Source: Candidatus Levyibacteriota bacterium (GTDB lineage: Bacteria > Patescibacteriota > Microgenomatia > Levybacterales > UBA12049). From it: a DNA stretch of 64,000 nucleotides. Each line of letters begins with the position of its first letter. Position 1 is the first letter of the stretch. This document shows positions 8,407-59,914 of this stretch, one piece after another. A program made the position numbers and the translations under genes. The stretch is taken from positions 4,227 through 68,226 of the forward strand of contig JBBSGK010000004.1 of NCBI GenBank assembly GCA_038254115.1, read 5' to 3'. Under the pieces are notes generated by a model. It saw only the letters and a list, made by a program, of their open reading frames with translations, did not search any database and was not told where the DNA came from.

Positions 8407-8408
8407 AA

Positions 8409-14872: not shown

Positions 14873-14903
14873 AGGTAGTGCATTGTAAGAAATAAGAACT
14901 ATA

Positions 14904-14954
14904 ATGTCAAACGGATCGGAGGGAAGGGAGAATTTGAAAAGTATTTATCATTGA
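14904..14954 (+). pseudogene. second, shorter degenerate duplicate of the FMN-reductase 3' terminus (fragment C)
   Basis: MSNGSEGRENLKSIYH*. It matches fragment B at 27 of 28 nt over GGGAGAATTTGAAAAGTATTTATCA. Confidence 0.6.
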
Positions 14955-30760: not shown

Positions 30761-30865
30761 GGATAAGATGGATTATAGCAGATTTATTGTGTACTTTTGG
30801 CAGCAAATGTATGCAAAACTGTTTTTTTATATGTTCTTTGTGTGGACAAAGAACCAAAGCCACCG

Positions 30866-31010
30866 CCAAGTCTAGCTCCAGCTTTCGGAATAGCACTCGC
30901 TCATTAAAAGAGTCAGTCTTCGCTACGCTTGCTTTTCCTCTTTTTCTGCCTGGCGGCAGACATTTTTTCGCTTATTTCTCATGCAGTCGCTCGAATCGGC
31001 GGATAATGGT
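30866..31010. repeat. second, partial copy (about 85% identity over about 150 bp) of the MITE-like element interior
   Basis: GTCTAGCTCCAGCTTT...CAGTCTTCGCT(A/G)CGCTTGCTTTTCCTCTTTT...CTGCCTG(G/C)CGGCAGAC...TTTCTCATGCAGTCGCTCGAATCGGCGGATA is shared with 10566-10716. Both copies are in the same orientation. Overlapping ORFs differ in frame and content, so the segment is non-coding. Confidence 0.6.
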
Positions 31011-34248: not shown

Positions 34249-34249
34249 A

Positions 34250-35221
34250 TTATTTTTTCACGATAGGTTTTTTATTAAAAATCAGAGTTTTTGAATAGAA
34301 CAAAAGCAAAAATACAGCCCCGAAAAGTATATAAAAAACAAGAGTAATGAAGCGGAAAATCAAAATTGAGGCAAAAGCTTTTTCAAATGCGACGTTCATA
34401 AGAACGAAAACCCCTGCAATCCCACCTTCGGCAAGTCCTACGCCTCCCGGGACGATGCCTGAAATAGCCCCGATGATAATACTCATCGCGTAAATATATA
34501 TGCTTTGCGCAAAGGTTAGTGGCAGGGAATAGGCGCTAACAATAATATATATCATAAGACCTCCTACAACGTTTGAAAATAAACCTATGCCGATATTGAG
34601 CAGAAATGTACCACCCGGTTTGTGATCGCTTCCTTCATGAAGCATGTTTTTTCTGACTCCTTTCTGGGTTGCTTTAAGAGTCATAGCAGGTTTTTTAAGT
34701 TTTTTAACTTTTCCGATCTTACCGAACAATTTGAAAAGTATTTTTTTATTCCAAATCAAATAAATGGTGAGTAGCATTAGTACAAGCGCAATCAAAGCTA
34801 CATTTAATAGAATTCCGTAAACTAAGCTTCCTATAATCGCAATTATTGCCGAGGAGAAAAATACAATCAAAGCCTGCATTACGACTGGTCCTGATGTTTC
34901 TTTGGTATCAACTCCGGTTTCTTCTTTTAAGATTACGGTTCTGAAAGCTTCCCCGCCTGGGATTGATGAGGTAGCTTGTCCTGCAATATAGACTTTGCAT
35001 ATCTGCCAAAAACTTACTTTGATATCATTTTTCCGCAGAAGCAGGAAAAACCGCCATGATTTAAGTAAAGATATTAATGTTGCTAACAGGCATAAATAAA
35101 TAAGCCGTTCTTTTGGAAAACGACTGATTTCTTTAGACAAAACATTTAGATTAACAGCATGGCTCAATGCAAATAGTACGAGAACACCAATGATGATGAA
35201 AATTATAAAACGGTATTTCAT
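34250..35221 (-). CDS. flippase-like membrane protein (UPF0104 / lysyl-PG-synthase TM-domain-like)
   Basis: 323 aa, about eight TM segments, with the central motif ...YIAGQATSSIPGGEAFRTV. Confidence 0.65.
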   Translation of the reverse strand: MKYRFIIFIIIGVLVLFALSHAVNLNVLSKEISRFPKERLIYLCLLATLISLLKSWRFFLLLRKNDIKVSFWQICKVYIAGQATSSIPGGEAFRTVILKEETGVDTKETSGPVVMQALIVFFSSAIIAIIGSLVYGILLNVALIALVLMLLTIYLIWNKKILFKLFGKIGKVKKLKKPAMTLKATQKGVRKNMLHEGSDHKPGGTFLLNIGIGLFSNVVGGLMIYIIVSAYSLPLTFAQSIYIYAMSIIIGAISGIVPGGVGLAEGGIAGVFVLMNVAFEKAFASILIFRFITLVFYILFGAVFLLLFYSKTLIFNKKPIVKK

Positions 35222-35222
35222 A

Positions 35223-35987
35223 TTATGAAGGTTTTACTTTGGGCTGCCATTTGTTGAATAGGAATATTACAATTGAAAGCCAGATAAAACCAACCAGATA
35301 TGCTCCCATTACATCTGAAAACCAGTGGGCTCCCAAATAAATTCTGGATGTACCGATTAGCGAAACTAAAAATGTTAATATCACAAGAAGAATTATGCGG
35401 AATTTATTGCTTGCAGGTAAAGTAAAGGTAAGATAGAGTAAAAATCCAAAAAATCCAACAAAAAACAATACATGACCTGAAGGAAAGCTATCAGGCTTAA
35501 GATAGCGTGCCACCTGGTGTATGAGCTTGGGATTTGGTCTTAACCTGTGAACAAAATGCTTCATAGTGACTGAAATAATTGTTGCTCCGGCTGTTGAAAA
35601 AATAACCATCATACCTTCTTTTTTACGTTTCTTCAGGAATAAGATTCCGGATGTAATAAGCAGCAGGACAGGGCTTATTCCGGGATTTCCAAGCCATGTT
35701 AAAAAATTCATAAGCATGTCAAACCATGAAGCATTGAACTCCTGCACCTCCTGGGTAATTGTTAAGTCTATTGCAAAATACGGTTTTTGTTTGGCAAAAA
35801 AAGTAAGAACTGCAACCGCACCCATAACAGATGCAAGGATAATATATGATGCAATTCTCCGTGCGTTATAGACGCGTTGGGAAACGACCGGTATGTTATC
35901 AACAGGTTTTGTTACTTTTTTAAGTGATTCAACTTTTTCTTCGATTGCTTTTTTTACAACCGGTAATTTTTTCTTTGGTTTTGCCAT
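35223..35987 (-). CDS. PAP2-family phosphatase
   Basis: SFPSGHVLFFVGF and SRIYLGAHWFSDVMGAYLVG. Confidence 0.8.
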   Translation of the reverse strand: MAKPKKKLPVVKKAIEEKVESLKKVTKPVDNIPVVSQRVYNARRIASYIILASVMGAVAVLTFFAKQKPYFAIDLTITQEVQEFNASWFDMLMNFLTWLGNPGISPVLLLITSGILFLKKRKKEGMMVIFSTAGATIISVTMKHFVHRLRPNPKLIHQVARYLKPDSFPSGHVLFFVGFFGFLLYLTFTLPASNKFRIILLVILTFLVSLIGTSRIYLGAHWFSDVMGAYLVGFIWLSIVIFLFNKWQPKVKPS

Positions 35988-36005
35988 ATAATTTATACGA
36001 TTCTG

Positions 36006-36926
36006 CTATTTTACCATAATCGTCAAGGATTTGGGAAAAATTTCGACTTTCAATTTTTCGACCGGATCGAAAAGGTCACCATCGCATTGAAAAGCTTTTT
36101 TACCTCTTAATGAAACTACGGAAATCTCTTTGCCTGAAAGCAATTTATAGTGCGGGCTTTTGTTGATATTTCCTCTTAAAATATTGATTGCTAAATCAAT
36201 CCAGTGCAGAATTCCTGATGCCTGCATAATACCGATTCTGAGTATTCCATTATCAGCTCTCGCTCCCGGAACTGCTTCAATACCTGATTCAATGCGTCCC
36301 ATGTTTGCGATCATGACACTTTTTGCTTTATAAGTTTTAGGTGGTTTTTTATCAATTGAAACTTTATAATATCCTGATGGGGAGCCAAGGCTTTTAAATC
36401 CTCCTATTATATATGCGAAAAATCCGAGTTTGTTTTTTACTTTACGGTCAGTGTTCTGCATCAATTCTGCGTCAAGTCCTATTCCTGCGATGATTGAGAA
36501 AAATATTCCGTTTGCGCGCCCGATATCTATTTTCTGAGGCTTACCCAATAGTGCAACAGGAATTGCTTTTTTATAATCTGTTGGAATTTTAAGATTCTTG
36601 GCAAACAAATTTCCGGTACCTAGGGGGACTACTCCGATAACGGCCTTTTGTTTGCTTACAGCCTGCAGAATCTCCATTATTGTTCCGTCACCGCCGCAAG
36701 CAATTATATGTCTAGTGCCATTTGCTAGCGCTTTTTTTGCGATAGTGCCGCCATTTATTTTGCGCGACGTTTCATATGCTTTTCCATGCCATCCAAGTTC
36801 TTTTGCAATCTCTAAGATTTTATCTTTCCTTTTCTGACCATCCCCAACCCCGCTTACGGGATTGATGATAAATACAGCATTTTTTGGGCCGTTTTTAGTA
36901 TTAATTTTTATTTTTGTATCAGTCAT
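36006..36926 (-). CDS. lipid kinase, DAGK_cat family (DgkB/YegS-like), second copy
   Basis: IIACGGDGTIMEILQAV...IGVVPLGTGNLFAKNLKIP. Confidence 0.85.
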   Translation of the reverse strand: MTDTKIKINTKNGPKNAVFIINPVSGVGDGQKRKDKILEIAKELGWHGKAYETSRKINGGTIAKKALANGTRHIIACGGDGTIMEILQAVSKQKAVIGVVPLGTGNLFAKNLKIPTDYKKAIPVALLGKPQKIDIGRANGIFFSIIAGIGLDAELMQNTDRKVKNKLGFFAYIIGGFKSLGSPSGYYKVSIDKKPPKTYKAKSVMIANMGRIESGIEAVPGARADNGILRIGIMQASGILHWIDLAINILRGNINKSPHYKLLSGKEISVVSLRGKKAFQCDGDLFDPVEKLKVEIFPKSLTIMVK

Positions 36927-37929: not shown

Positions 37930-38060
37930 ATGAGCGATATCCCAAATATATCTTTTCAGAAGCTGCAAGTGGCGGATATTCCCCAAATTCATAAGTGGCT
38001 TAAAGAGCCGCATGTACACGCATGGTAAGATAGGTACAAGAAAAATTCTACTGGCGGCAT
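37930..38060 (+). pseudogene. truncated duplicate of the 5' end of the downstream GNAT acetyltransferase gene
   Basis: MSDIPNISFQKLQVADIPQIHKWLKEPHVHAW* versus intact MLNSHKISFRKLEVGDIPQIHKWLKEPHVHEWYDRDKKNS. The 28-nt block ATAAGTGGCTTAAAGAGCCGCATGTACA is identical. A C-to-A nonsense change turns TGGTAC into TGGTAA. Confidence 0.7.
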
Positions 38061-38075
38061 TTATTTTGCGCTCTC

Positions 38076-38915
38076 TTACATTAAACGTGTTTGGGTTTCC
38101 TCTTGGACACGTTTTGAATCAGTTATAAGAACACCCATTAACAGGTCAACCTGATCAGGAGTTAGTTTATTATCTTGTCCCCATTCGTAACGGTCATCTC
38201 TCATTGCCAATTCACGACCCTGGTCTAATATGCCGATTCCAAGAGCATGCTTTACTTTGGCAATTTCCGATGCCAACCTTCTTCTTTCTACTACAGCATC
38301 TATTATCGTAGAGTCTATTTGGGTATTATCCTCGGGTTTTATTTTTACAGCAGAGGTGACATCTGCAAATACAGCATCGAAATTTCTTAATCCTGCTTGA
38401 GTCAGGATAACTTGATCAACCCTATCTAATCCATTTCTATAATCGCTCAAGCGTTGCAGGGAAGAATCGTTACCCCCCTCAATTGGTATTTTGGTGATTG
38501 CTGGATGATGGCGGACAAATACTGCCCAGTTTTCAAACATGTCCCGTGCTGTGTTTAAGCTTTCACTATCAACTTGTCGATTATTCAAAACATGATTTAC
38601 TGTAGTTTGTACTTTTTTGGAGACTTGTGTTATATAATCATTTGGTGGCATTTCTGTAGGTTTGGCGTCCCAATCGACGATGTTACCCAGGGTAACTTCA
38701 TGATGAAACCTCTCCATTGGATTCGTAGGTATTTCCAGCAACATAATGCCTTGTTCCAATGCGCCTCTGTCGCGTCTATCATCGTAGCCATTACTTGCGC
38801 GCAAGCGTCTTCTACTGCTAAAGACGGTAATTGCATCGCTTACTCTATATAAGTCAAGGAAGGATGCTGCGCGGGGCGCATCAGGTTTTGTCGGTTTTTC
38901 AAGTGTTCCCCACAT
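38076..38915 (-). CDS. hypothetical protein (Arg-rich; inserted between the GNAT fragment and the intact GNAT gene)
   Basis: 279-aa ORF with no family recognised. Confidence 0.55.
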   Translation of the reverse strand: MWGTLEKPTKPDAPRAASFLDLYRVSDAITVFSSRRRLRASNGYDDRRDRGALEQGIMLLEIPTNPMERFHHEVTLGNIVDWDAKPTEMPPNDYITQVSKKVQTTVNHVLNNRQVDSESLNTARDMFENWAVFVRHHPAITKIPIEGGNDSSLQRLSDYRNGLDRVDQVILTQAGLRNFDAVFADVTSAVKIKPEDNTQIDSTIIDAVVERRRLASEIAKVKHALGIGILDQGRELAMRDDRYEWGQDNKLTPDQVDLLMGVLITDSKRVQEETQTRLM

Positions 38916-38963
38916 AATGCGTGATTATATACCAGCAGCCTCATTTTGTAAATCTAACGTCAT

Positions 38964-39524
38964 ATGGAGTGCTACAATATGCATATGCTTAATTCTCACA
39001 AGATATCATTCCGGAAGCTGGAAGTTGGGGATATTCCACAAATCCATAAGTGGCTTAAAGAGCCGCATGTACATGAATGGTACGATAGGGACAAAAAAAA
39101 TTCGCTTGAAGAAGTTACCGCGGAGTATACCAAATACATAACAGGGGAAGACAAAATGGATGGATACTTGGTGTGTATTGAAAATAAAGCAATAGGGTAT
39201 ATCCAGAAATACAGGATCTGGGACTGGCCTGAGTTTGCAAAAGCTTTAGGCTATGATAAGTCCACAGTAGCGATTGATATATTTATAGGAGATAAGAAGT
39301 TTATAGGAAAGGGTTTGGGATGTTGTTTTATTAAAAAGTTTCTAAAGGAAATAGTTTTCAAGGAAGAGGGGATAAGGACATGTCTTATTGATCCCGAGCC
39401 GGAAAATAAGCGTGCAATAAAGTCTTACGAAAAAGCAGGATTCCGATATGTCAAAACCCTAGATATCCCACCAGACCCGGGGCTTACTTATTTGATGGAG
39501 ATAAGGAAAGAAGACGCCAAATAG
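38964..39524 (+). CDS. GNAT-family N-acetyltransferase (aminoglycoside-acetyltransferase-like)
   Basis: GNAT core ...IGDKKFIGKGLGCCFIKKFLKEIVF...NKRAIKSYEKAGFRYV. The likely true start is the ATG at 38985 (MLNSHK...), just after a TACAAT box at 38971-38976, which implies a leaderless mRNA. Confidence 0.85.
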   Translation: MECYNMHMLNSHKISFRKLEVGDIPQIHKWLKEPHVHEWYDRDKKNSLEEVTAEYTKYITGEDKMDGYLVCIENKAIGYIQKYRIWDWPEFAKALGYDKSTVAIDIFIGDKKFIGKGLGCCFIKKFLKEIVFKEEGIRTCLIDPEPENKRAIKSYEKAGFRYVKTLDIPPDPGLTYLMEIRKEDAK

Positions 39525-49441: not shown

Positions 49442-51745
49442 TTATTTTCCCCAGATCTTTAAACTATCTTGTACTTGTTTGTCCTGTAGGTCGATGTTTT
49501 TCAGAATATATTGATATGTATTTATTGCTTTTTGATTATCTCCCACTTCGTGGTAAAAAAGGCCCAGGGCAAAGTATGCATCGCGATAGTCAGGCTTGAG
49601 TTTTATGGTATGCTCCAGGATCTCAATTCCTTTTTTGGGGCCCATTGTTTGTCCTGCAAGTACTCCATAGTTGTAGGATATTTTGGCATCATTTGGCGCA
49701 AGCTCCCGGGCCTTTATGATGGAGCTTAGAGCTTTGCCATAATAATTTTTTTCATTGTCCTTCCCACTCTGCGCAAGTGTATAGAAAAGTCTTACGCGGT
49801 TTTTCCAGTAGACAATATTGTTGGGATGAGTATTTATGACATTGTCACTTATTGTGATTGCATCCCGCGATAACTGAGCTGCTCCTGATGCGTCTTTTTG
49901 AAGATATAAAGCAGATGCCAGGGTGCCCAGATTTATGGATAGTTCATCTTTATAAACAGGCTCATTTGGCTCTGCATTGACCGCGTTTTGGAGAGGGGTA
50001 ATTGCTTCCTGATAACTACCTACTTTATCCAGACTTGAACCATTTGCGTAATTCAGATCAGCGCTCCAGTAGCTAAAAAGGTTCTGAAGGAAGAGAGAAG
50101 AAGTAAGAAGTAAGGCTACTAGCAGAATCCATTGGATGATCGAGGTTTTAGATGGGACAGAAGGCTCATCGGAGACAGAGGGAAAGCTTAATACTTTTTG
50201 GGGATTGAGTATTCCGGATAGTATGAATATGAATGCAGGAATTAGGAAAAAGTAGAGATTGATTATTACAACCGAGAATCCGAAGAAGTTGGAAACCAAG
50301 ATTGAAACCCACCCCGCGAATAGAGCAGTAATCAGAATACTCGGAATACTCAGAGAACCAGTTGATCTGACCTTCAGATTTTCAGATGATCTGAGCGGAC
50401 TGTCATTCTGAGTTTTCAGAGTTTTCTGAAAAACTTGAAAAATAAATAATCCAATGATTGCTAGATAGCTTCCCAGACCAAATGCTCCCGTTGTCGCCAG
50501 ATAATTTAGGTATTCATTGTGGGCCTTGTTGTACAGATAATCCCATTCCGAAGTGACATTGTGTTCCACTGGCCGGTATCTGTAATAGGCAAAAGCAAAT
50601 GTCTCAACACCTGTCCCGATAATCGGATTTGCCTTCCATGCATCTATTGCCCCGCGCCAAACCAAAAGACGGATTTTGCCGGAATCAGTTCCTCCGAGTT
50701 CTCCGGCAGCTGGTAATTCGTGGGTTGAAGTTGGATTTGATGATTTTATTTTGTTCAATTCAGGCAAAGTGAATTTTGAAAGTTGTGAAATAGGAACGCC
50801 CGAAAAGAAATTGAAAACTATAAATATCAGATTGAATAGCAGAAAGTATTTTAGGAAATTTTCTTTGAGATATTTTTTGAAAAATAGTATTGCCCAGAAG
50901 ATAATATTTGCAATCCAAAAACCTATAAAACCGCCTCGTGTATCGGTGTAGGTGAGGCAGGCATAAAATAAAGAAGTAAGAAGTAGGAAGTAAGAAGCAA
51001 GGAAAAAATTTCCTGAACCATAATTCTTGATTCTTGATTCTTGATTCTCATGGGATGATTCTGATTTAGATTTTAGATTTCTTAGAAAGTAGGAAATTGA
51101 AAGAGGTATTAAAACTGACATGTATGCAGCAAGCCAAGCCGGCTGACCAAGAGTTGAGAAGATACGGATTGTGGGTTTGAATGCATCAGTCCAGCATGAT
51201 GTATCAAAACTTCCCCTGAAAATATAACAAGTAGGGTCCCAACCAAAATGGGATGGAAATCCCCAAAGAGCAACAATCAAGCCTGAAAATAAGCTAACTT
51301 TTAAGACTTTAAGTACGTGTTTGGTTTCCAGATTGGAGACAAAGGCGTAGTATAGAAATATATAAGAGATGATAGATAACAGGCCGCCGTTAAATCTTGA
51401 GTAATAACCCCAGAGCGAGACATGCGGATCAAGGGAAAAAATTGTTGAGATTATTTGAGAAGCGAGGAAAAGAATTAGCGGAATATCAAGAGGTGTACGT
51501 TGGATGAAGATTCTTTTTTGAAGAATCATTTTTGCTATCCAGGAAGCGCCGATTATGGTTGTTATTCCAAAAGTAAGCCACATTTTTGGAAATTCAAAAA
51601 GTTCTGAAGGGGATCCGCTAAAAACAATGGGGACTAGGAGGAAGAGGGCGTAGAAGGAGAATTCGATAATGCGGTTGCAAAAATTTATAATTTTCATTAG
51701 CGGGATGATGTACGGCAGATAAAACTTCATTTTCCATGGTATCAT
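49442..51745 (-). CDS. O-antigen-ligase-like polytopic membrane protein with C-terminal TPR repeats
   Basis: 767 aa, at least 12 TM helices with a Wzy_C-like core, then TPR-like repeats (...AINTYQYILKNID...). It contains in-frame heptamer-repeat inserts. Confidence 0.75.
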   Translation of the reverse strand: MIPWKMKFYLPYIIPLMKIINFCNRIIEFSFYALFLLVPIVFSGSPSELFEFPKMWLTFGITTIIGASWIAKMILQKRIFIQRTPLDIPLILFLASQIISTIFSLDPHVSLWGYYSRFNGGLLSIISYIFLYYAFVSNLETKHVLKVLKVSLFSGLIVALWGFPSHFGWDPTCYIFRGSFDTSCWTDAFKPTIRIFSTLGQPAWLAAYMSVLIPLSISYFLRNLKSKSESSHENQESRIKNYGSGNFFLASYFLLLTSLFYACLTYTDTRGGFIGFWIANIIFWAILFFKKYLKENFLKYFLLFNLIFIVFNFFSGVPISQLSKFTLPELNKIKSSNPTSTHELPAAGELGGTDSGKIRLLVWRGAIDAWKANPIIGTGVETFAFAYYRYRPVEHNVTSEWDYLYNKAHNEYLNYLATTGAFGLGSYLAIIGLFIFQVFQKTLKTQNDSPLRSSENLKVRSTGSLSIPSILITALFAGWVSILVSNFFGFSVVIINLYFFLIPAFIFILSGILNPQKVLSFPSVSDEPSVPSKTSIIQWILLVALLLTSSLFLQNLFSYWSADLNYANGSSLDKVGSYQEAITPLQNAVNAEPNEPVYKDELSINLGTLASALYLQKDASGAAQLSRDAITISDNVINTHPNNIVYWKNRVRLFYTLAQSGKDNEKNYYGKALSSIIKARELAPNDAKISYNYGVLAGQTMGPKKGIEILEHTIKLKPDYRDAYFALGLFYHEVGDNQKAINTYQYILKNIDLQDKQVQDSLKIWGK
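50971..51049. repeat. roughly 80-bp imperfect palindromic repeat element: (GAAGTAA)n, spacer, (TTCTTGA)n, in frame in the ligase-like gene
   Basis: aagaagtaagaagtaggaagtaagaagcaagg...aaaaaatttcc...ttcttgattcttgattcttgattctc. A second copy is at 55201-55267, and a half-copy (gaagaagtaagaagtaagg) at 50096-50114. Confidence 0.6.
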
Positions 51746-51746
51746 A

Positions 51747-52901
51747 TTGGAAAAACGTGGGCAAGCTGATAGAATAGGTTTAATTATGAATCTCTTGAAT
51801 AGTTTCTACGGTCTTTTTTCTCACGATATCGGTATAGATCTCGGCACTGCAAATACTCTTGTTTTTGTCCGGGATAAAGGGATTGTGATCCGTGAACCGT
51901 CAGTTGTCGCGAGGCAAAAAAAGAGCAAACAAATCATCGCGATTGGAAGTGAGGCCAAGAAAATGCTTGGCAAGACACCTGCTTCTATAGTTACGGTACG
52001 TCCGCTTCATGGGGGAACGATTGCGGATTTTGACGCGACTGTTTCGATGATCGCTTACTACATCAAGCAAGTCCATGAGATGGGGGGAAAATTGACCGGG
52101 ATTTTTGCCCGTCCCAAAGTGGTGATTGGGATTCCATCTGCAGTAACCGAGGTTCAAAGACGTGCTGTCTGGGAAGCAGCTCTCTCAGCAGGAGCCCGGG
52201 AAGCGTATCTTATTGAAGAGCCGATGGCCGCGGCAATTGGTGAGAATATATCAATTTTTCAGTCAAAGGGCATAATGGTAGTCGATATAGGCGGCGGGAC
52301 TACAGAAATCGCGGTTATCTCGCTTGGTGGAATAGTAGTCGGCCGGTCAATGAAACTCGCCGGAGACGAGATGGATCAGGCGATCCTGCATTATGTGCGG
52401 CTTCGCCATGGAATGCTTCTTGGGGAGAGTACAGCTGAGGATATAAAAATAAAAATAGGAAGCGCTGCCCAGAAAAGCGCAAAAGCGCAAAAGCGAAGAA
52501 GCGAAGAAGGGGAAGAAGAGAAGGAAGAGATTAGCCGTACGGCGAAGGTTATGATTGTGAGGGGACGGGATATTGAGACTGGTCTTCCAAAAAGCCAGAA
52601 GATAACTGAGCCTGAAATACGTGAGGCATTATCTCCGATAATCAATCAAATAATTCAAGCCGTTGCCGATGTTTTGGAGGAAACGCCGCCTGAGCTATTG
52701 CCTGATATTCTCGAGCAGGGAATTCTTCTCACAGGTGGGGGCGCCAATTTGGAAGGCTTTGATCAGTTGATGGTTGAACGGGTGCATCTGCCTGTTTTTG
52801 TTTCATCTGATCCGATGACCTCTGTTGTCCGCGGAACGGGAAAAGTTGTGCAGGATGAAAAACTCCTCGAGCGGGTGAAGGTAATTGGGGGATTGAGGTA
52901 G
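51747..52901 (+). CDS. mreB: rod-shape-determining protein MreB (with an approximately 35-aa charged insert)
   Basis: Actin-fold motifs DLGTANT, VIGIPSAVTEVQRRA and DIGGGTTE. The insert QKSAKAQKRRSEEGEEEKEE is encoded by the heptamer repeat (AAAGCGC)n(GAAGCGA)n at 52474-52512. Confidence 0.93.
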   Translation: MEKRGQADRIGLIMNLLNSFYGLFSHDIGIDLGTANTLVFVRDKGIVIREPSVVARQKKSKQIIAIGSEAKKMLGKTPASIVTVRPLHGGTIADFDATVSMIAYYIKQVHEMGGKLTGIFARPKVVIGIPSAVTEVQRRAVWEAALSAGAREAYLIEEPMAAAIGENISIFQSKGIMVVDIGGGTTEIAVISLGGIVVGRSMKLAGDEMDQAILHYVRLRHGMLLGESTAEDIKIKIGSAAQKSAKAQKRRSEEGEEEKEEISRTAKVMIVRGRDIETGLPKSQKITEPEIREALSPIINQIIQAVADVLEETPPELLPDILEQGILLTGGGANLEGFDQLMVERVHLPVFVSSDPMTSVVRGTGKVVQDEKLLERVKVIGGLR

Positions 52902-52921
52902 GAATAAAATTGTTATCCTGC

Positions 52922-53476
52922 TCATGCAGCCGGATTGAGCGCTATCCTACCGGTACGCAGTCCAAAGAAAAAATCTTCCGCTTTTGCCCGTTCATTTTCT
53001 GTGAGTCTGGCCAGGCTTTCGGCAGTTGAAGCATCAATTCTCGCACCGGTCATCATGATAGGAAGAGCTTCCATTTCGTCTACACTCAATTCACGTGAGC
53101 CTAGAGGAATATGGAATGTTGTTCCGTCTTCTTCTGCAACAACATAAGACTTTCTTTCCATGGATGAAGGTCCAATCCCATCTTTACCAGGAATAGGAGT
53201 AAAGGTTGACTTGACAGTTTGAGGACCATCCTCAAACATTACACCGGAACGTGTTAAACCAACTCCTGCTGTATTTGATTTGGCGTTGGGATCCACATAA
53301 TTGAGGCGATATCCACCATCTGATCCTCTGACTTTTATTCCTTCTTTCGCAGACTTTAAATCTCCTAACCCACCATAAAATAAGCTGATGGCCATTCTTC
53401 TTGCATCATCCTTTCTGCTTTGGTCTGGACTTAGTGGTCTTTCTGGTGAGCTTGCCATAATAAGTGGATGATACAT
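52922..53476 (-). CDS. hypothetical protein inserted between mreB and mreC
   Basis: Start trimmed to the ATG at 53474-53476 (MYHPLIMASSPER...). The longer ORF to 53782 overlaps a plus-strand promoter and ORF. Confidence 0.5.
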   Translation of the reverse strand: MYHPLIMASSPERPLSPDQSRKDDARRMAISLFYGGLGDLKSAKEGIKVRGSDGGYRLNYVDPNAKSNTAGVGLTRSGVMFEDGPQTVKSTFTPIPGKDGIGPSSMERKSYVVAEEDGTTFHIPLGSRELSVDEMEALPIMMTGARIDASTAESLARLTENERAKAEDFFFGLRTGRIALNPAA

Positions 53477-53500
53477 TTTTAATAACAGATTGTCAAGACT

Positions 53501-53531
53501 AGCGGTGAAGGTAATTGGGGGATTGAGGTAG
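53501..53531 (+). repeat. duplicate of the last 31 nt of mreB (29 of 31 identical), distal to the inserted gene
   Basis: AGCGGTGAAGGTAATTGGGGGATTGAGGTAG versus the mreB 3' end GCGGGTGAAGGTAATTGGGGGATTGAGGTAG at 52871-52901. Confidence 0.7.
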
Positions 53532-53534
53532 AGA

Positions 53535-53562
53535 TTGCAAATAAACAAAATTGTGGTAGAAT
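53535..53562 (+). promoter_or_regulatory. sigma-70-like promoter (TTGCAA, 16-nt spacer containing TG, TAGAAT)
   Basis: TTGCAA at 53535-53540, then TGgTAGAAT with TAGAAT at 53557-53562, followed 8 nt later by the ATG at 53571. Confidence 0.35.
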
Positions 53563-53570
53563 GCATTTCT

Positions 53571-53882
53571 ATGGGATTAGAAACACAAGATAGATTGGCA
53601 AGAGAAAGAGTACTTGCTACGCTTACATCAATGTCAAATGATGCATATCCATCAAACACACGGCATATAGCTGAAAGAATGGTTCGAGGCAAACCTACAA
53701 CGGGTGATCTGGTAACTGTTTTTCTTGCGTTGGGTCCACTTGAGGAGGAAGGAAAAGTAGAATCTGTTGTAGTTAGACACACAAATCCGGCACATATTGC
53801 TTATCGATTAACCAGAGAATCAGAGCCAAGACGTAGGCGAAAACGAAATAGAAAATGGCCAATAGAGGAAGTTAGAAGATAA
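53571..53882 (+). CDS. small winged-helix-like protein (PadR-like?) with an Arg-rich tail, hypothetical
   Basis: MGLETQDRLARERVLATLTS...TTGDLVTVFLALGPLEEEGKVESVV resembles the PadR wing (LYPALHRLEEEGLI). The C-terminus is RRRRKRNRK. Confidence 0.35.
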   Translation: MGLETQDRLARERVLATLTSMSNDAYPSNTRHIAERMVRGKPTTGDLVTVFLALGPLEEEGKVESVVVRHTNPAHIAYRLTRESEPRRRRKRNRKWPIEEVRR

Positions 53883-54049
53883 TCATCTAAAATTAAACCA
53901 AAATAATACTAGTTATTGACTAGCGGAAGAGTAATCTGTCAGGATTTGTTAAAATTCCTATTGTTCGAGCGTAGCTGACTTTCATTCGCTAAAGCCTCGG
54001 GGGGATATGCAGTTTTGAATTTACAATCAGGGAAGTATATAATACCTTT

Positions 54050-54805
54050 ATGCAGAAGAGGAAGAGTTTTTTCCCCACGTTTTTAATCTTTTTTATACTT
54101 TCTATATTTATTTTTCTCTTATCCCGCTTAGGATTTCTCAACGGATTGACAGGATTTTTGGAGAGGGCAACAGTACCTCTGCAACGTGTAATATTTGGAG
54201 CAACACATTCCGATAAATGGGGAGAGTCTGCAAAATTGAAGGATGAAAATAGTAAATTGGCCTCACAAATTGTAAAGCAATCAGAATTGAAGCGTGAAAA
54301 TCAGGCACTCCGTGATCAATTCCAGACTTCAAATCCGGCGCCCAGAATACTTTTACCGGCAAAAATTATAGGTAACAATGATGGCAGTCTAACAATTGAT
54401 AAGGGACGCGCGGACACTCTAAAAAAAGGTGATGTAGTAGTTATAAAAGACAATCTAATCGGCAAGGTGGAGAAAATTTCAGAACACCTCGCAACTGTAA
54501 GCCTTCTAACTTCAAACATAATCTTTACTGCAAAAACGGCCAAAACAGGATCAGTCGGAATACTGAAAGGCCAATCAAATGGCATGATACTTGATAATGT
54601 TCTGCTCAATGATCATCTTGAGAAAGACGATTTGGTCATAACAAAGGGGGATGAAGATTTATATGGAAGTGGATTTCCGCCTGATCTGGTTGTCGGGAAA
54701 ATTGTTTCGGTAAATAAAAAAGCAAGCAATCTTTTCCAAAGCGCTGAAGTTAGGAGCTTAATTGATTTTTCCAAACTCGAAACAGTATTCATAATTACGA
54801 AATAA
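54050..54805 (+). CDS. mreC: rod-shape-determining protein MreC
   Basis: N-terminal TM helix, coiled coil (ENSKLASQIVKQSELKRENQALRDQF), then beta-rich domains. It lies downstream of mreB. Confidence 0.85.
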   Translation: MQKRKSFFPTFLIFFILSIFIFLLSRLGFLNGLTGFLERATVPLQRVIFGATHSDKWGESAKLKDENSKLASQIVKQSELKRENQALRDQFQTSNPAPRILLPAKIIGNNDGSLTIDKGRADTLKKGDVVVIKDNLIGKVEKISEHLATVSLLTSNIIFTAKTAKTGSVGILKGQSNGMILDNVLLNDHLEKDDLVITKGDEDLYGSGFPPDLVVGKIVSVNKKASNLFQSAEVRSLIDFSKLETVFIITK

Positions 54806-54811
54806 CTTTAA

Positions 54812-55222
54812 ATGGAGATATTATTTTTCATTCTACTTATAATTTCTATTTTCGTGGAATCAACTTTTATAAACTTGCCCCTAGTATTCATTCTTCTGGT
54901 TGTGTTTTGTATCCTCAAAAAAAGCGGCTACGTATTTTTGAGCGCTTTTTTAGCAGGAATTTTACTGGATCTTACAGCAGTCCGGTTTCCGGGAACATCC
55001 AGTATTTTTTTCCTCCTCGTTCTTTTAATGATCATGCTATATCAACGCAAATATGAAATTAATTCTTATCCTTTTATACTTGTCAGCTCGTTTGTTGGAA
55101 CGTATATGTATTTGATTATTTTTAATAAGCATGCTAATTTATTACAGCCATTTTTATGTACCATTTTAGCATTGGTGCTATACTCAGTTCTGCAAATACG
55201 GGAAGTAAGAAGCAATAATTAA
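54812..55222 (+). CDS. mreD: rod-shape-determining protein MreD-like membrane protein
   Basis: 136 aa, four to five TM helices, positioned between mreC and mrdA. Confidence 0.6.
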   Translation: MEILFFILLIISIFVESTFINLPLVFILLVVFCILKKSGYVFLSAFLAGILLDLTAVRFPGTSSIFFLLVLLMIMLYQRKYEINSYPFILVSSFVGTYMYLIIFNKHANLLQPFLCTILALVLYSVLQIREVRSNN

Positions 55223-55284
55223 GAGTTAAGGTCTTGTGGTAAATTTTTCCTTGATTCTTGATTCGTTATTATTAATTCATATCT

Positions 55285-57078
55285 ATGAAAACAGGATACG
55301 CCTTTGGTGAGCATATAAAAACAGAGAAGATCAAAAAAAGAAGATATTCGTCAGGTCCGTCGGATTTTAACTCGCGCGAATTTTTTCTTCCCCTTGCACT
55401 TTTTGGAGCAGCCGTTCTTCTGATATCCAAACTATTTTATCTGCAAGTGGTTAAGGGTTCTGATTTCCGGGCGCTTTCTGATTCCAACCGAATAAGGACT
55501 CAAATTATTCATGCTCCGCGGGGTGCTATATTTGACCGGAACGGTGTCCCGCTTGTAATAAATAATCCGGGATTCAGGCAGGTAAATAAAGACAAATCAA
55601 CAATCTTGACTCGGGATCAGGCGCTGCCTCTTATTGCAAAAGGGGATAAAAATCTCGAGGTAGACTCTCTCAGGAATTATGTCTTAAAAGACAGTCTGAG
55701 CCATGTTATCGGATACATCGGCCAGGTCTCCAAGCCCGAGCTCGATTCAGGGGAGTTTAATGATTACCGTGGTACTGATTGGATAGGTAAAAGCGGAATT
55801 GAGAGGCAATATGAACACATATTGAGGGGCACAGACGGTAAGCAACTGGTTGAAGTCAATGCAATGGGTAATAAAGTGCGTCCACTTGGCACGACCGATC
55901 CAATTTCAGGGCAGGATATCACACTGACGATTGATTCGAAGCTTCAGCAAGTTGTATTTGACGCGACAAAAGATGTAAAAAAGGGCGCTGTTATCGTCTC
56001 CAGCCCGACAGGTGAAATTCTGGCAATGGTTTCGCGTCCTTCTTATGACCCCAATCTTTTTACCCTGGATAAAACTTATAAAGTTGCAACGGATGCAGCG
56101 CATCAAAATGTAAGTGAGATACTTCTGGATTCACAAAATCAGCCGCTTTTGAACAGGGCAATTGCAGGTACATATCCTCCCGGCTCAACATACAAAATAG
56201 TGACAGCCGCCGCCGGACTTAATGAAAATATTATTGATGAGAATTACAAGATACGCGACAGCGGTGTAATAAAAGTCGGGGAGTTTTCTTTTGCGAATTG
56301 GTACTATACGGGTTATGGCAGGACAGAGCCGGGTGAGCTAAATGTAGTCCGTGCACTGGCTCGGTCCAATGACATTTTTTTCTACAAACTTGCTGAAAAA
56401 GTAAGTCCTGACAAGCTATCTGAAATGGCAGTAAAATTTGGTTTGGGAAATAAATCGGGCATTGACTTGGGAGGAGAAGCAAAAGGTTTGGTTCCTACTG
56501 AAAAATGGAAAAAAACTGTAATTGGGGAGGGATGGTACTTGGGAGACACTTATCATTATGGAATAGGACAGGGATTTTTATTGACAACACCTCTTCAAGT
56601 TAATGAATGGACAGAGGTAGTTGCAAATGGCGGGAGTCTGTACGAGCCACATTTGCTGAAAGCTCAAAGTGAAAAGCGCAAAAGCGCAAATATTTTGAAT
56701 GATAAGACGATTTCTTTGATCAGGCAGGGAATGATTGAAAGCTGCTCAACGGGAGGTGTTGCGTGGCCATTATTCAAGTTTAAAGTTCAAAATCCAAAGT
56801 TAAAAGTTGATGGCAAAAATATTTTGGAAGTAAAAGAAGCCAGTGAATCAGCAAAATCTGAAAGCTTGAGAGAGATTGCGGTGGCGTGCAAGACTGGAAC
56901 CGCCCAGCATGGAGGGGAGACGACCCTGCCTCATGCATGGATTACCCTCTTTGCTCCTGCATACAATCCCCAAGTTGTAGTAACTGTTTTGAATGAGGAG
57001 AGTGGGGAAGGCTCAAATGAGGCAGCCCCAATAGCTAAAAAGATATTGGAAGCCTATTTTACAGAAACACCTCAATAA
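55285..57078 (+). CDS. mrdA: penicillin-binding protein 2 (peptidoglycan D,D-transpeptidase)
   Basis: N-terminal anchor, dimerisation domain, and transpeptidase motifs SxxK (PGSTYKIV), SxN (ARSNDIFFY) and KTG (ACKTGTAQ). It contains (AAAGCGC)x2 at 56672-56689. Confidence 0.9.
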   Translation: MKTGYAFGEHIKTEKIKKRRYSSGPSDFNSREFFLPLALFGAAVLLISKLFYLQVVKGSDFRALSDSNRIRTQIIHAPRGAIFDRNGVPLVINNPGFRQVNKDKSTILTRDQALPLIAKGDKNLEVDSLRNYVLKDSLSHVIGYIGQVSKPELDSGEFNDYRGTDWIGKSGIERQYEHILRGTDGKQLVEVNAMGNKVRPLGTTDPISGQDITLTIDSKLQQVVFDATKDVKKGAVIVSSPTGEILAMVSRPSYDPNLFTLDKTYKVATDAAHQNVSEILLDSQNQPLLNRAIAGTYPPGSTYKIVTAAAGLNENIIDENYKIRDSGVIKVGEFSFANWYYTGYGRTEPGELNVVRALARSNDIFFYKLAEKVSPDKLSEMAVKFGLGNKSGIDLGGEAKGLVPTEKWKKTVIGEGWYLGDTYHYGIGQGFLLTTPLQVNEWTEVVANGGSLYEPHLLKAQSEKRKSANILNDKTISLIRQGMIESCSTGGVAWPLFKFKVQNPKLKVDGKNILEVKEASESAKSESLREIAVACKTGTAQHGGETTLPHAWITLFAPAYNPQVVVTVLNEESGEGSNEAAPIAKKILEAYFTETPQ

Positions 57079-57098
57079 AATCTTGCACTTGAATTTTC

Positions 57099-57674
57099 TT
57101 GCCCCCCCTGATAGAATATAGGACTATGAGATTTGAAAAGCAAGATAGAAGACCACATGTAGCAAGGGATGGTCAACGCGGCAGAAGCGAGGAGGGCTCG
57201 GAGCTTCCGGCCGGCCCAAGAAAAAGTTTTTTTGATGCTGTTAACCAAAAGGGTTCTGATATGCGTGATTTAGCCTGCCGAGGGTTACTATATCAGTCAA
57301 CAACTGGCGAGATAACTGTGGGAAGTAATCCCCAAAATGGGCCAAAAGTTACAATAACGGTTGATATTAAGGCAAATCGTGATATGGTGGTTCATAGACG
57401 CATATATCATGATTCCAGCGGCAAGCATCTAAAAAGACATGATGAATTGGAACTTACATCTTCAGACAGGGATCCAGCAACAAGAACTTTCACAAGAATT
57501 AGAATTGAGAGTGAGGATCACATAAGCGGAAAAAAGTCTTTCACCATTGATAATGAGGGACCAGATCAAGTAGTAGACCAAAGCGGTGTAGATTTTGCAA
57601 CAAAAATTCTTAAAGATGCATCCGGTGATTTAAAGCGCTTAATGAGACCTGAGGCATCTGATGAGTTCGCGTAA
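57099..57674 (+). CDS. hypothetical protein (Arg-rich) inserted after mrdA
   Basis: 191-aa ORF, bracketed by the mrdA 3' end and its duplicate. Confidence 0.5.
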   Translation: MPPLIEYRTMRFEKQDRRPHVARDGQRGRSEEGSELPAGPRKSFFDAVNQKGSDMRDLACRGLLYQSTTGEITVGSNPQNGPKVTITVDIKANRDMVVHRRIYHDSSGKHLKRHDELELTSSDRDPATRTFTRIRIESEDHISGKKSFTIDNEGPDQVVDQSGVDFATKILKDASGDLKRLMRPEASDEFA

Positions 57675-57687
57675 CTCTCCCCAAAAA

Positions 57688-57733
57688 GCCAAAAAAATCT
57701 TGGAAGCGTATTTTACAGATCGAAAATAATTGA
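57688..57733 (+). pseudogene. degenerate duplicate of the mrdA 3' terminus
   Basis: GCCAAAAAAATCTTGGAAGCGTATTTTACAGATCGAAAATAATTGA encodes KKILEAYFTDRK*, versus genuine GCTAAAAAGATATTGGAAGCCTATTTTACAGAAACACCTCAATAA (AKKILEAYFTETPQ*) at 57034-57078. Confidence 0.65.
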
Positions 57734-57779
57734 TTCTTCAAATACTTGATTTTTATTAATCTTATGTTATTATTTTGCT

Positions 57780-58115
57780 ATGATTGATAGGGACCAGGTC
57801 CGAGCAAGGTATAGGAGATTAAAGCCTTTTGTAAGCAGTTTAGAGAGCGTACCAAAAGCAGAGCAATTGTGGAGAAACAAAGACCGAGGCGTAATATTCT
57901 CATTATTAAAATATGCAACTTTAGAAGACGCAGTATTAGGTGATTACACTGGGGCAGAACTAAATTTACGTGGGAGATTAAGAGCAAGAACAAAAGTTGT
58001 TGATGATTTTGTCAGAGCTTTTGGTAAGCCAACTAGAGAAAAATTGACTAAAGTGCTGGGAGTACCTAAAAAGGTAATATGGGAAGATCCAAGAATTAAT
58101 AGATCCTCACAATAA
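57780..58115 (+). CDS. hypothetical protein (Arg-rich)
   Basis: 111-aa ORF. Confidence 0.4.
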   Translation: MIDRDQVRARYRRLKPFVSSLESVPKAEQLWRNKDRGVIFSLLKYATLEDAVLGDYTGAELNLRGRLRARTKVVDDFVRAFGKPTREKLTKVLGVPKKVIWEDPRINRSSQ

Positions 58116-58138
58116 GACTGGATTCTGCATAAAGATTA

Positions 58139-58765
58139 TTGTATAATACCGCCATGGTATTAGCAGAAGTAGAAACAGAAGGCAAAGAACAAGATGGGTA
58201 TTTCAGAGTCCGCAGGTTTGTCGCCCGGGTGTCGGATCTGCATGAGCTTCAGGAACAAAGACTTGAAGGTATGAAGATGGAGCGAGGGGTCGGATCGCTT
58301 GATGGCCAGATCGCTATAGTTGAGGAGGATTTGCGTGACAGAGCTGAGCAGACTGAGGTGCAGGATTGGGCAGCCAGAAAGAAGGAGCAGTACGATGCCG
58401 AGTTTACTGGACTTGTGCGCCAAAAAGGGCGACGGGGACAAAGCCTCTCAGCATTAGATGAAGAGATTGAAGCTCTAAGAGGAAGTAAAGAGGTCTTAGC
58501 TCTACGTTGGTACTTAGAAAGTAGGCAGGGAGGGTCGAGAAAGAGGGGCCAAAAATCTCCATCAGCAAATGCGCAGAAACGAGTTGCTGCACTTGGTAGG
58601 GCTATTAAAGATGGAAATTATAGAACACCACAGGGGCATTTTGCAGTAGGGCGAGCAGCAACAGATATTGGAATAGGGCCAAATACTGCCAAAAGAGATT
58701 TTATGAGACTGCCAGCAGATCAAAGAGGGGGACTGACCCTTAGAACAGCCGCTCCTAGAAAATAA
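58139..58765 (+). CDS. hypothetical protein (Arg-rich)
   Basis: 208-aa ORF. Confidence 0.45.
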   Translation: MYNTAMVLAEVETEGKEQDGYFRVRRFVARVSDLHELQEQRLEGMKMERGVGSLDGQIAIVEEDLRDRAEQTEVQDWAARKKEQYDAEFTGLVRQKGRRGQSLSALDEEIEALRGSKEVLALRWYLESRQGGSRKRGQKSPSANAQKRVAALGRAIKDGNYRTPQGHFAVGRAATDIGIGPNTAKRDFMRLPADQRGGLTLRTAAPRK

Positions 58766-58789
58766 CCTCATTATGCTACTATAAATAGT

Positions 58790-59914
58790 ATGCAAGAAAG
58801 ATCATATTGGCTTGGGTTTTCTTCTTTTTCGGGGATTGGGCCCAAGAAGTGTGAAGCTTTATTAAATGAATTCGGCACTGCTGAGGATGCATGGAAAGCG
58901 GATTTTAAAAATCTGGAGAAAGTATTGGGGAAAGCGCTTACCCCAAAGTTTGCAGATTTCCGTGACAGTTTCTCGATAGCAGACTATGAAAAACAACTCC
59001 TAAGGAAAAAGGTGGGATATTTGATTCTTACGGATAAAGATTACCCGTTCTTGTTAAAACAAATCAAGAAACCTCCATTTGTACTTTATTATAAGGGTAA
59101 TATTGAGATCTTGAAACAAGACGTGCCTACCGGTAGGCAGGTTCAGGATGACTATAAATCTATTGCGATTGTCGGGACGCGGCGGATTACTGAGTATGGA
59201 AAACAAGTGACTACCAGTCTTACAATGGACTTGGTAAACAATGGTTTTGTAGTTGTTTCAGGGCTTGCTCTGGGAGTTGACGCTGCAGCCCACAAGGCAA
59301 CTATCTTGAATAAAGGCAAGACAATAGCGGTACTTGGGTGCGGAGTTGATTGCTGTTATCCCAGGGAGAACCAGCAGATTTATGATAACATTCTTGAGAG
59401 TGGGGGAGCGATTGTGTCTGAATATTCTCTTGGTGAGCCCCCCTCAAAAGGATCTTTTCCATCAAGAAATCGAATTATCTCAGGTTTGTCATGCGGCGTA
59501 ATTGTAACAGAAGGATCTGCAGATAGCGGGGCGTTGTATACGGCAGATGATGCATTTGCCAATGGACGGCCCGTATTCGCAGTTCCAGGGCCCATCACAT
59601 CGAGCCTCTCAAAAGGCCCTCATGGATTGATAGGAAAAGGGGCAAAGCTTATAAGCGGGGCTGGGGAAATCATAGAGGAATTAGGTTTCAGAGGAGACAG
59701 AAGAGACAAAGGGGAGAGAGGGGCGAAGAGTTTTAAGGGAGATACAAAAGATGAACAGAGAATTATCGATCTCCTGCAGAATGAAAGCCTGCATTTTGAT
59801 GAGATTGTAAAACGAAGCAAGATCAGGTCTTCAAAACTGGGCGGAATTCTTTCAATGATGGAGATGAAAGGAATTGTAAAAAGTCAGGAAGCTGGCTTTT
59901 TCTGTTTGATTTAG
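58790..59914 (+). CDS. dprA: DNA-processing protein A (Smf/DprA)
   Basis: Rossmann-like DprA core IAIVGTRRITEYGKQ...VVSGLALGVDAAAHKA...IAVLGCGVD..YP, plus a C-terminal winged-helix-like domain. Confidence 0.85.
   Translation: MQERSYWLGFSSFSGIGPKKCEALLNEFGTAEDAWKADFKNLEKVLGKALTPKFADFRDSFSIADYEKQLLRKKVGYLILTDKDYPFLLKQIKKPPFVLYYKGNIEILKQDVPTGRQVQDDYKSIAIVGTRRITEYGKQVTTSLTMDLVNNGFVVVSGLALGVDAAAHKATILNKGKTIAVLGCGVDCCYPRENQQIYDNILESGGAIVSEYSLGEPPSKGSFPSRNRIISGLSCGVIVTEGSADSGALYTADDAFANGRPVFAVPGPITSSLSKGPHGLIGKGAKLISGAGEIIEELGFRGDRRDKGERGAKSFKGDTKDEQRIIDLLQNESLHFDEIVKRSKIRSSKLGGILSMMEMKGIVKSQEAGFFCLI

Follow-up and report, generated by a model that had tools for sequence, protein, structure and literature searches.

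Homology-facilitated illegitimate recombination was reportedly described by de Vries and Wackernagel in 2002, by Prudhomme et al. in 2002 and by Meier and Wackernagel in 2003. It has further been put forward to explain small variable segments of bacterial genomes (PMC2884548). A sequential displacement that leaves displaced 3′ ends behind was proposed for the effector-immunity arrays of the type VI secretion system (T6SS) in Vibrio cholerae and for Rhs/contact-dependent inhibition (CDI) orphan modules (Kirchberger et al. 2017, PMC5361080). A comparable arrangement is described here in a stretch of 64,000 nucleotides (nt), hereafter the window, from a Candidatus Levyibacteriota bacterium (assembly GCA_038254115.1, contig JBBSGK010000004.1 of 70.7 kb, positions 4,227 to 68,226 of the forward strand), in which mreB is followed by a single open reading frame (ORF) on the minus strand, an ORFan, and then by a second copy of the mreB 3′ end. 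The event is best interpreted as the recent capture, independent of a recombinase, of an ORFan with its own promoter, and as one of five such events in the window. With modest confidence, we take the mreB scar to be the displaced end left by homology-facilitated illegitimate recombination with foreign Levybacteria DNA. The type of event is known from other bacteria; here it is found at housekeeping genes of a bacterium of the Candidate Phyla Radiation (CPR), in stacked form and with a measurable, apparently orthologous origin of the second copies. A full-text literature search on illegitimate recombination in Patescibacteria returned no paper describing such scars.

As in the T6SS arrays, a conserved gene would serve as the homologous anchor, a new end would arrive together with a neighbour gene and the old end would survive downstream, in repeated events which place the newest unit next to the anchor and involve no recombinase gene. 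The anchors of the window differ in being housekeeping genes (mreB, PBP2, FMN reductase and GNAT) and not polymorphic toxins, and the cargo consists of single self-promoted ORFans instead of effector-immunity pairs, with no obvious selective logic such as retained immunity. In addition, the remnants are very short (31-117 nt) and the host belongs to the CPR.

Insertion with long target duplication of restriction-modification genes was reportedly described by Nobusato et al. in 2000. Like the inserts of this class (PMC2853133), the mreB insert is short and carries no mobility genes, its repeats exceed the target duplications of transposons and overlap a gene 3′ end, and the repeat occurs only once at the orthologous site in other genomes, which are here those of other species and not conspecific. 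Against the definition of the class (repeats >30 bp, insert <20 kb, no mobility genes), the mreB locus is a borderline member, with gapped repeats of 31-32 nt around an insert of 599 nt, and its repeat (28 nt exact, 31-32 nt gapped) lies at the lower limit. Unlike the known cases, its cargo includes no restriction-modification system (no match in Pfam, NCBIfam or PADLOC), and the repeats at its sister loci are orthologue-like (85-87% identity, with synonymous differences) instead of near-identical to the resident target.

Integrative and cis-mobilisable elements at gene 3′ ends carry a replacement end, as exemplified by ICESt1 and the cis-mobilisable elements (CIME) at fda, by tRNA-targeting islands and by tycheposons. 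The cassettes of the window share with them direct repeats that correspond to the gene 3′ end, a preserved gene function and tandem accumulation at one site, but there is no integrase in the window, the units are single-gene, four unrelated targets are used within 64 kb, and no conserved ends or polarity are seen. In fungal mitochondria, mobile endonuclease ORFs insert at the 3′ ends of atp6, cox3 and nad3 with a duplicate C-terminal segment, as in Allomyces atp6 and the Glomus mORFs. The order of gene body, new C-terminal segment, inserted ORF and displaced old remnant is the same, and the termini are likewise orthologue-like; however, the ORFs inserted here lack LAGLIDADG, GIY-YIG and HNH domains and are mutually unrelated.

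The mreB terminal repeat

The locus is composed of the following features.

51747-51775, plus strand: promoter-like site TTGGAA-17-TAGAAT just 5′ of mreB (promoter scan)
51786-52901, plus strand: mreB coding sequence, 371 amino acids (aa), the conserved anchor gene (Pfam MreB_Mbl, 1.7e-122)
52870-52901, plus strand: repeat copy 1, the working mreB 3′ end, codons ..ERVKVIGGLR and TAG, with the exact core at 52874-52901
52902-52921: spacer of 20 nt between the mreB stop codon and the stop codon of the convergent cassette gene (read from the sequence)
52922-53476, minus strand: cassette ORFan, 178 aa if read from ATG 53458 (the likelier start) or 184 aa from ATG 53476 (ORF list)
53468-53496, minus strand: cassette promoter-like site TTGACA-17-TATCAT, with 11/12 matches the best in 51500-58200
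53501-53531, plus strand: repeat copy 2, a non-coding mreB 3′-end remnant, AGC-GGTGAAGGTAATTGGGGGATTGAGGTAG, with a 1-nt deletion relative to copy 1

The mreB 3′ terminus reads ...GAG CGG GTG AAG GTA ATT GGG GGA TTG AGG TAG. A core of 28 nt is exactly repeated (52874-52901 and 53504-53531, start-to-start spacing 630), and gapped local alignment extends the match to 32 nt in copy 1 (52870-52901) and 31 nt in copy 2 (53501-53531), with 31 matches and one 1-nt gap in a run of G. The alignment score of 57 compares with a maximum of 24 among 500 shuffles. No further copy of the mreB tail with up to 6 mismatches is present in the window, and upstream of copy 2 no mreB homology was detected beyond the repeat itself. 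The right edge of the repeat coincides with the last base of the stop codon (TAG, 52901 and 53531). The order is mreB, tail 1, minus-strand ORFan and tail 2, which places the remnant on the far side of the insert from the anchor gene. No terminator-like site was predicted in the 52902-52921 spacer.

The original prediction had described the repeat as 29 of 31 identical positions with 660 bp between the copies. The repeat itself is confirmed, but the count in the ungapped register (52871/53501) is 28/31, and the copies are 599-602 nt apart, 661 nt being the span that includes both of them. The single antisense gene that it placed between the two termini is present in the ORF list (minus strand, 52922-53476). 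It was right, too, about the order of a promoter and a small ORF after copy 2, whose description as winged-helix-like receives weak support from an alignment with PadR.

The repeat structure is real and not an artefact of assembly. A Logan contig, assembled independently from SRR24807095, matches the window at 100% identity over 20,112 nt (42790-62901), a span that covers both the mreB and the PBP2 repeat pairs. Logan assemblies are built from 31-mers. The 28-nt exact repeat is shorter than such a 31-mer, so that graph paths should not be merged and each junction of the integrated arrangement should be spanned by k-mers of the reads.

Sister cassettes in the window

Four further single-gene cassettes of the same build are located in the window, at the PBP2 3′ end, at the FMN-reductase 3′ end (two, stacked) and at the GNAT 5′ end, which bears out the original prediction of the same pattern at three other loci. 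The repeat pairs lie at 57026-57065 and 57680-57719 (PBP2), at 13189-13257, 14005-14073 and 14921-14954 (FMN reductase), and at 37945-38048 and 39000-39103 (GNAT). In total, 5 locus-specific repeat pairs were observed in the window versus ~0.45 in shuffled windows.

57026-57728, plus strand: locus A, PBP2, with the working 3′ end to 57078, the cassette and the PBP2-tail remnant
57089-57117 and 57126-57674, plus strand: locus A cassette, promoter and 182-aa ORF (called an ORFan), respectively
57680-57728, plus strand: locus A PBP2-tail remnant, which reads ..AKKILEAYFTDRK and stop, where the working end reads ..AKKILEAYFTETPQ and stop
13161-14954, plus strand: locus B, FMN reductase, with the working 3′ end to 13256, two stacked cassettes and two tail remnants
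13253-13885/13921, minus strand: locus B cassette b1
13977-14072, plus strand: locus B tail remnant 2, 31 codons
14066-14872, minus strand: locus B cassette b2, sigma70_r4-like
14921-14954, plus strand: locus B tail remnant 3
37930-39101, plus strand: locus C, GNAT, with the 5′-end remnant, the cassette and the working GNAT gene
37930-38046, plus strand: locus C GNAT 5′-end remnant, 117 nt, GNAT acetyltransferase, stop at codon 33
38076-38915, minus strand: locus C cassette ORF, chorismate-mutase-like C-terminus
38924-38952: locus C cassette promoter, the working GNAT gene starting from ~38985

Every cassette consists of one ORF with its own strong promoter-like site, the -10 hexamer of which ends 7-10 nt upstream of the ATG. 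No relationship exists among the five cargo proteins, and neither a motif common to the ends of the five cassettes nor terminal inverted repeats on the cassettes were found. Among the ~60 ORFs of the window, none carries an integrase, transposase or recombinase domain. With a GC content of 0.39-0.45, the cassettes resemble the genome (0.41), in keeping with related donors. Remnant lengths vary from 31 to 117 nt, and the mreB insert is single-copy.

The boundaries of the copies are informative. The similarity of the PBP2 and FMN-reductase tails stops exactly at the stop codon, as does that of mreB. A limit at this position is expected if gene ends precede different downstream DNA, and is not expected for a random staggered cut. 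The GNAT remnant has its own ATG and directly follows the stop codon of the upstream gene. At the FMN-reductase locus, b1 and b2 each have a stop codon that overlaps with the tail on the left of the gene, suggesting that each cassette gene was natively adjacent to the preceding tail and arrived with it, while the following tail would be the earlier resident.

Origin of the second copies

At the three sister loci the copies are 85-87% identical, with only short identical runs. Pooled over these loci, remnants and working copies differ by 27.3 synonymous and 24.7 non-synonymous changes over 50 and 211 sites, respectively. The resulting ratio of non-synonymous to synonymous differences per site (pN/pS) of 0.21 rejects neutrality (p = 1e-7) as well as the lower bound of 0.5 set for one decayed and one constrained copy (p = 0.003). 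When only the segments detected at the nucleotide level are used, pN/pS is 0.20 (p = 6e-6 against neutrality and p = 0.007 against the 0.5 limit). The synonymous difference (pS) of ~0.45-0.55 indicates that remnant and working copy stem from well-diverged lineages.

A comparison with 120 FMN-reductase orthologues points the same way. Up to 24/31 residues of remnant 2 match orthologous tails versus 19/31 for the window's own tail, and remnants 2 and 3 retain ..NLKSIYH, the consensus of the family, at the place where the working tail reads ..NLESIYH. Since remnant 2 is nearer to the orthologues, it is not a decayed copy of the present working tail. Judged by their codons, the second copies at the sister loci thus appear to be the ends of diverged orthologues and not decayed local duplicates. 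Of the duplication named in the original prediction, the second copy itself is upheld, whereas the local target-site duplication that the word implies does not agree with these diverged orthologue ends (pN/pS 0.2).

At mreB, the tail is nearly invariant at the nucleotide level in relatives, with 1/28 positions differing in L020. Because of this near-invariance, an imported tail could be identical to the resident one over 28 nt; a local duplication or an att-type core could likewise give identical copies.

The mreB-mreC junction in related genomes

A scan of species-representative genomes with MreB gave 25 Levybacteria/Patescibacteria loci at 70-86% identity. Their conserved backbone comprises a wzy-like gene on the minus strand, mreB, mreC, mreD and PBP2, usually with dprA and topA. 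In the 23 Levybacteria loci, the distance from mreB to mreC is ~15-150 nt in 12 and 0.8-4.1 kb in 11. The genes found at this junction in relatives are unrelated (a cytidylyltransferase, a sugar transporter, an alpha/beta hydrolase and many hypotheticals) and include no mobility genes. In the window, mreC has its own promoter-like site.

These results do not sustain the earlier view of mreB, mreC and mreD as normally contiguous and of the locus as an interrupted operon: unrelated genes occupy the junction in 11/23 Levybacteria loci. In the comparison with related genomes that had been suggested as a check, mreB adjoined mreC in 12/23 and a duplicated mreB tail was seen in none. The mreB-mreC junction is a phylum-wide insertion hotspot, tolerated and not a broken operon, since each gene of the window has its own promoter-like site and the junction is variable in relatives. 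Repeated insertion is thus tolerated in core clusters for cell shape and cell wall, as every gene there carries a promoter-like site of its own.

Variability is not confined to this junction. The distance between PBP2 and dprA ranges from 0 to ~3 kb (57078-58790 in the window), and the interval between the FMN-reductase gene and guaA is likewise variable (L028-L033); both hold unrelated cargo without mobility genes. Among the MreB loci (L001-L025), PBP2 and dprA are adjacent in L001, L006 and L015, and 0.3-3 kb of variable genes separate them in most. Overall, a conserved backbone is punctuated by fixed hotspots.

All 23 related species have a single mreB tail, and no gene-end remnant was found at the protein level in the 25 mreB loci of relatives (~340 kb, ~290 genes) or in six of their FMN-reductase loci. 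At an equal rate, the chance that all four loci fall within the window's 64 of 404 kb would be ~6e-4 by our arithmetic.

One-sided recombination as a proposed source of the scars

The proposed course of events would start with donor DNA from another Levybacteria lineage, which would carry part of its mreB including the 3′ end, together with the adjoining promoter-ORFan unit of ~600 nt. This piece would pair and recombine homologously within mreB on one side. Beyond the gene end donor and recipient would differ, and the distal end of the donor would be joined illegitimately ~31 nt before the stop codon of the resident mreB; across the loci, the illegitimate joint would lie 31-117 nt inside the resident gene end. 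An equivalent route would be a break close to the gene end, repaired with a template whose homology is limited to one side. A break so close to the end may leave too little distal homology for second-end capture, which would explain the short remnants.

The outcome would be the mreB body, the working tail, the new gene, the old tail and the old downstream DNA with its promoter, the PadR-like ORF and mreC. After the event mreB would be intact, mreC would keep its own promoters and the new gene would be expressed from its own predicted promoter. Repetition would place each new cassette directly beside the anchor gene and ahead of the older ones, giving a stack of the kind found at the FMN-reductase locus. 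The DNA may have entered by uptake: dprA is encoded 1.7 kb downstream of PBP2, and DprA is a recombination mediator of natural transformation. The location of dprA is compatible with DNA uptake and proves nothing.

Several observations weigh against this scheme. Homology-facilitated illegitimate recombination is rare in experiments (PMC5361080), and the window holds five scars versus none in the ~340 kb of mreB loci and six FMN-reductase loci of relatives; together, the rarity and the concentration call for an extra, lineage-specific cause. In two cassettes, the illegitimate joint is found just 4-10 nt beyond the -35 hexamer, a tidier arrangement than random joints predict. Neither a donor genome nor a conspecific empty site was found in the searched collections, where look-ups of exact proteins gave only the source contigs. 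The mreB copies are identical over 28 nt and offer no divergence signal for a test of orthologue origin, so that the displacement proposed at mreB draws on the stop-codon boundary of the repeat and on what the sister loci show by analogy. Finally, a sliding-window nearest-neighbour scan for a breakpoint inside mreB gave noise, the relatives all being ~75-80% identical.

A wider proposal is that this lineage gains genes mainly by a recombinase-independent, gene-end-guided route, in which compact promoter-ORFan units, bearing a short part of the terminus of a conserved gene as an address label, would pass from lineage to lineage, integrate at the end of that gene, stack there and be able to loop out via their flanking repeats. 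We regard this as speculative and improbable. If true, the address-label units would be mobile cassettes without an element-encoded enzyme, unusually active in this organism (five events in 64 kb, with joints tight against promoters).

Genomes of CPR/Patescibacteria are small, poor in classical mobile elements and rich in lineage-specific ORFans. Scars such as those described here could serve as a readable record of acquisition, giving the homology-anchored side, the site of the illegitimate joint and donors among diverged relatives (pS ~0.45-0.55). If they are general, scans for gene-end remnants would provide a simple, annotation-free means of dating and counting the recent horizontal gene gains of uncultivated bacteria, and of estimating how strongly one-sided recombination following DNA uptake shapes their accessory genome.

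Alternative explanations

The alternative that survives best, unlikely as we consider it, is a Campbell-type integration, in which a small circle carrying the promoter-ORFan unit and the 31-nt mreB end integrates by a single crossover, the repeats being attL and attR. The crossover could proceed by short homology or by a site-specific recombinase encoded elsewhere, as in elements targeting gene 3′ ends. Identical direct repeats that overlap the gene 3′ end and flank a compact unit agree with this model, and in E. coli a single crossover of a circle carrying part of a gene gives flanking duplications of 109-950 bp (PMC3240628). The pN/pS values do not speak against it, as an element-borne gene end would likewise be under coding constraint. 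However, no integrase or recombinase is encoded in the 64-kb window, and the five cassettes use four unrelated targets without a common end motif or a fixed gene orientation. Moreover, the sister copies, with 85-87% identity and short identical runs, would be a poor substrate for crossover, and the model leaves the source of the circles unexplained. A site-specific integrative or cis-mobilisable element is not supported (no recombinase among the ~60 window ORFs and no common ends), although its recombinase could be encoded elsewhere in the genome.

The second alternative, an insertion with long target duplication, appears quite improbable. Here the foreign unit would enter at a staggered break of the resident DNA, the filling-in of which would duplicate 32 nt of the mreB end, and both copies would be native. 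The identity of the mreB copies except for the 1-nt slip in the G run is what this model predicts, and direct repeats above ~30 bp, the lack of mobility genes and the overlap with a gene 3′ end match the cases of Furuta et al. 2010 (PMC2853133). One of their examples is a 46-bp repeat overlapping the 3′ end of HI0105, and the cases come mostly from naturally competent species (PMC2853133). But the model leaves unexplained why the repeat ends at the stop codon, at mreB as at the other tail loci. In addition, the sister copies have diverged under purifying selection, with remnant 2 closer to orthologues than to the resident tail, and the cargo belongs neither to restriction-modification nor to the known defence genes.

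It is very improbable that copy 2 was instead kept by selection as a functional element, for example as an operator or upstream element of the promoter of the PadR-like gene, a promoter that would natively abut the mreB stop. Copy 2 does end 3 nt before the -35 hexamer of this promoter, and the mreB tail is unusually conserved at the nucleotide level across relatives. Yet relatives with other genes or mreC after mreB keep the same tail, so that its conservation is explained by the coding of ..RVKVIGGLR. Selection would account for the retention of copy 2 and not for its origin, and the sister remnants adjoin unrelated promoters or gene ends.

A chimeric assembly of co-existing strains, or of a separate small replicon, is suggested by the metagenomic origin of the contig and by the variability of the hotspot between lineages but is scarcely credible, given the identical independent assembly of SRR24807095 over 20.1 kb with both repeat loci, a 28-nt repeat below the Logan 31-mer size (for which no merging of paths would be expected) and diverged remnants elsewhere that cannot come from repeat collapse.

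Other classes of element were considered and rejected. An insertion sequence, a transposon or a miniature inverted-repeat element is contradicted by the lack of terminal inverted repeats and transposase, by the variable repeat lengths (31-117 nt) and by the single-copy insert. An integron cassette would require a palindrome at the cassette ends and an integrase, neither of which was seen, and the repeats are locus-specific gene ends. The 28-nt length raised the possibility of a dif/Xer-type site; by inspection the sequence is neither dif-like nor palindromic, and the other loci use unrelated sequences. A tRNA or non-coding RNA at the mreB locus was rejected, as was a diversity-generating retroelement (no reverse transcriptase, repeat too short). 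A homing endonuclease ORF was set aside because the cargo has no nuclease domain match and the five cargos are unrelated, although a novel nuclease fold remains conceivable.

The cassette gene and its downstream neighbours

The -35 hexamer of the mreB-cassette promoter ends 4 nt from repeat copy 2. The position of this promoter (53468-53496) argues for ATG 53458 as the start codon, with a short-leader transcript starting just before the ATG; the NCBI annotation of the gene is likewise 178 aa. Homologue searches covered two of the five cargo proteins, those of the mreB and GNAT loci. For the mreB-cassette ORF, a word-indexed search of 5.8 billion proteins gave the self-match only, and an exhaustive HMMER search of 1.8 billion representative proteins gave the self-match and one weak match, to the Big_2 repeats of a 769-aa protein, which is uninformative on function. 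It has no match in Pfam, NCBIfam, PADLOC or PDB, and a single-sequence AlphaFold2 model was unusable for a fold search (predicted local distance difference test, pLDDT, 36). The search with the GNAT-locus cassette ORF gave the self-match only.

Downstream of copy 2, the following features were assigned.

53535-53562, plus strand: promoter-like site TTGCAA-16-TAGAAT (with TG), starting 3 nt after copy 2 (promoter scan)
53571-53882, plus strand: small ORF, 103 aa, weakly PadR winged-helix-like
54015-54043, plus strand: mreC promoter-like site TTGAAT-17-TATAAT (promoter scan)
54050-54805, plus strand: mreC coding sequence (Pfam MreC)
54812-55222, plus strand: mreD (synteny)
55285-57078, plus strand: PBP2 (synteny)

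The 103-aa ORF aligns over 73 aa, with 34% identity, with the winged-helix region of a PadR protein confirmed by Pfam, but has no Pfam match of its own and its PDB sequence search was empty. A metagenome scan with it retrieved only a distant PadR protein in an unrelated context, and its AlphaFold2 model (pLDDT 56) is not reliable and too poor for a fold search. This PadR-like ORF is probably an older resident of the gap between mreB and mreC.

Predicted -10 hexamers end only 7-10 nt from the start codon at many genes of the window (hexamer end/start codon: 51775/51786, 53562/53571, 54043/54050, 57117/57126, 53468/53458, 14882/14872 and 38924/38915). These short distances suggest that mRNAs in this organism are mostly leaderless or have very short leaders.

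Other features of the window and of related genomes

An identical 20-nt, (AAAAGCGC)n-like stretch occurs in mreB (52472-52491) and in PBP2 (56671-56690). The mreB copy falls within a Lys/Glu-rich insertion of ~25 aa in MreB (AAQKSAKAQKRRSEEGEEEKEE); the surface loop that hosts this insertion is hypervariable among relatives. In one relative (L021, DATKGO010000007.1), the corresponding loop of MreB is enlarged in frame by ~90 aa (8168-8448). This larger insertion holds a 30-nt palindromic element (8358-8387), of which other copies are located at 3043-3071, 3434-3462 and 3531-3560, and which resembles the in-frame palindromic elements of Rickettsia.

Elsewhere in the window, the minus strand at 2427-5992 encodes a hypothetical protein of 164 aa and a Big_3_5 surface-type protein of 963 aa, the latter with Gly-rich repeats of 9-nt periodicity. 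Both genes sit between rplA (6042-6965) and rplJ (1712-2260) and interrupt the nusG-rplK-rplA-rplJ-rplL cluster, whose genes are usually contiguous; at this insertion, no remnant of a gene end was detected. The gene of the surface-type protein contains a perfect 42-nt tandem duplication (3943-4026).

An intergenic repeat of ~150 nt occurs at 10561-10713 and 30854-31005, 20 kb apart, with 81-85% identity between the copies. It contains no convincing ORF and has no tRNA or Rfam match, and could represent an unannotated small RNA or a pair of small-protein genes. Finally, a cluster of lipid-gene paralogues is present at 32573-36926, with PAP2 phosphatases at 32573 and 35223 (a third is encoded at 10978), DAGK_cat/YegS kinases at 33265 and 36006, and an LPG_synthase_TM gene.

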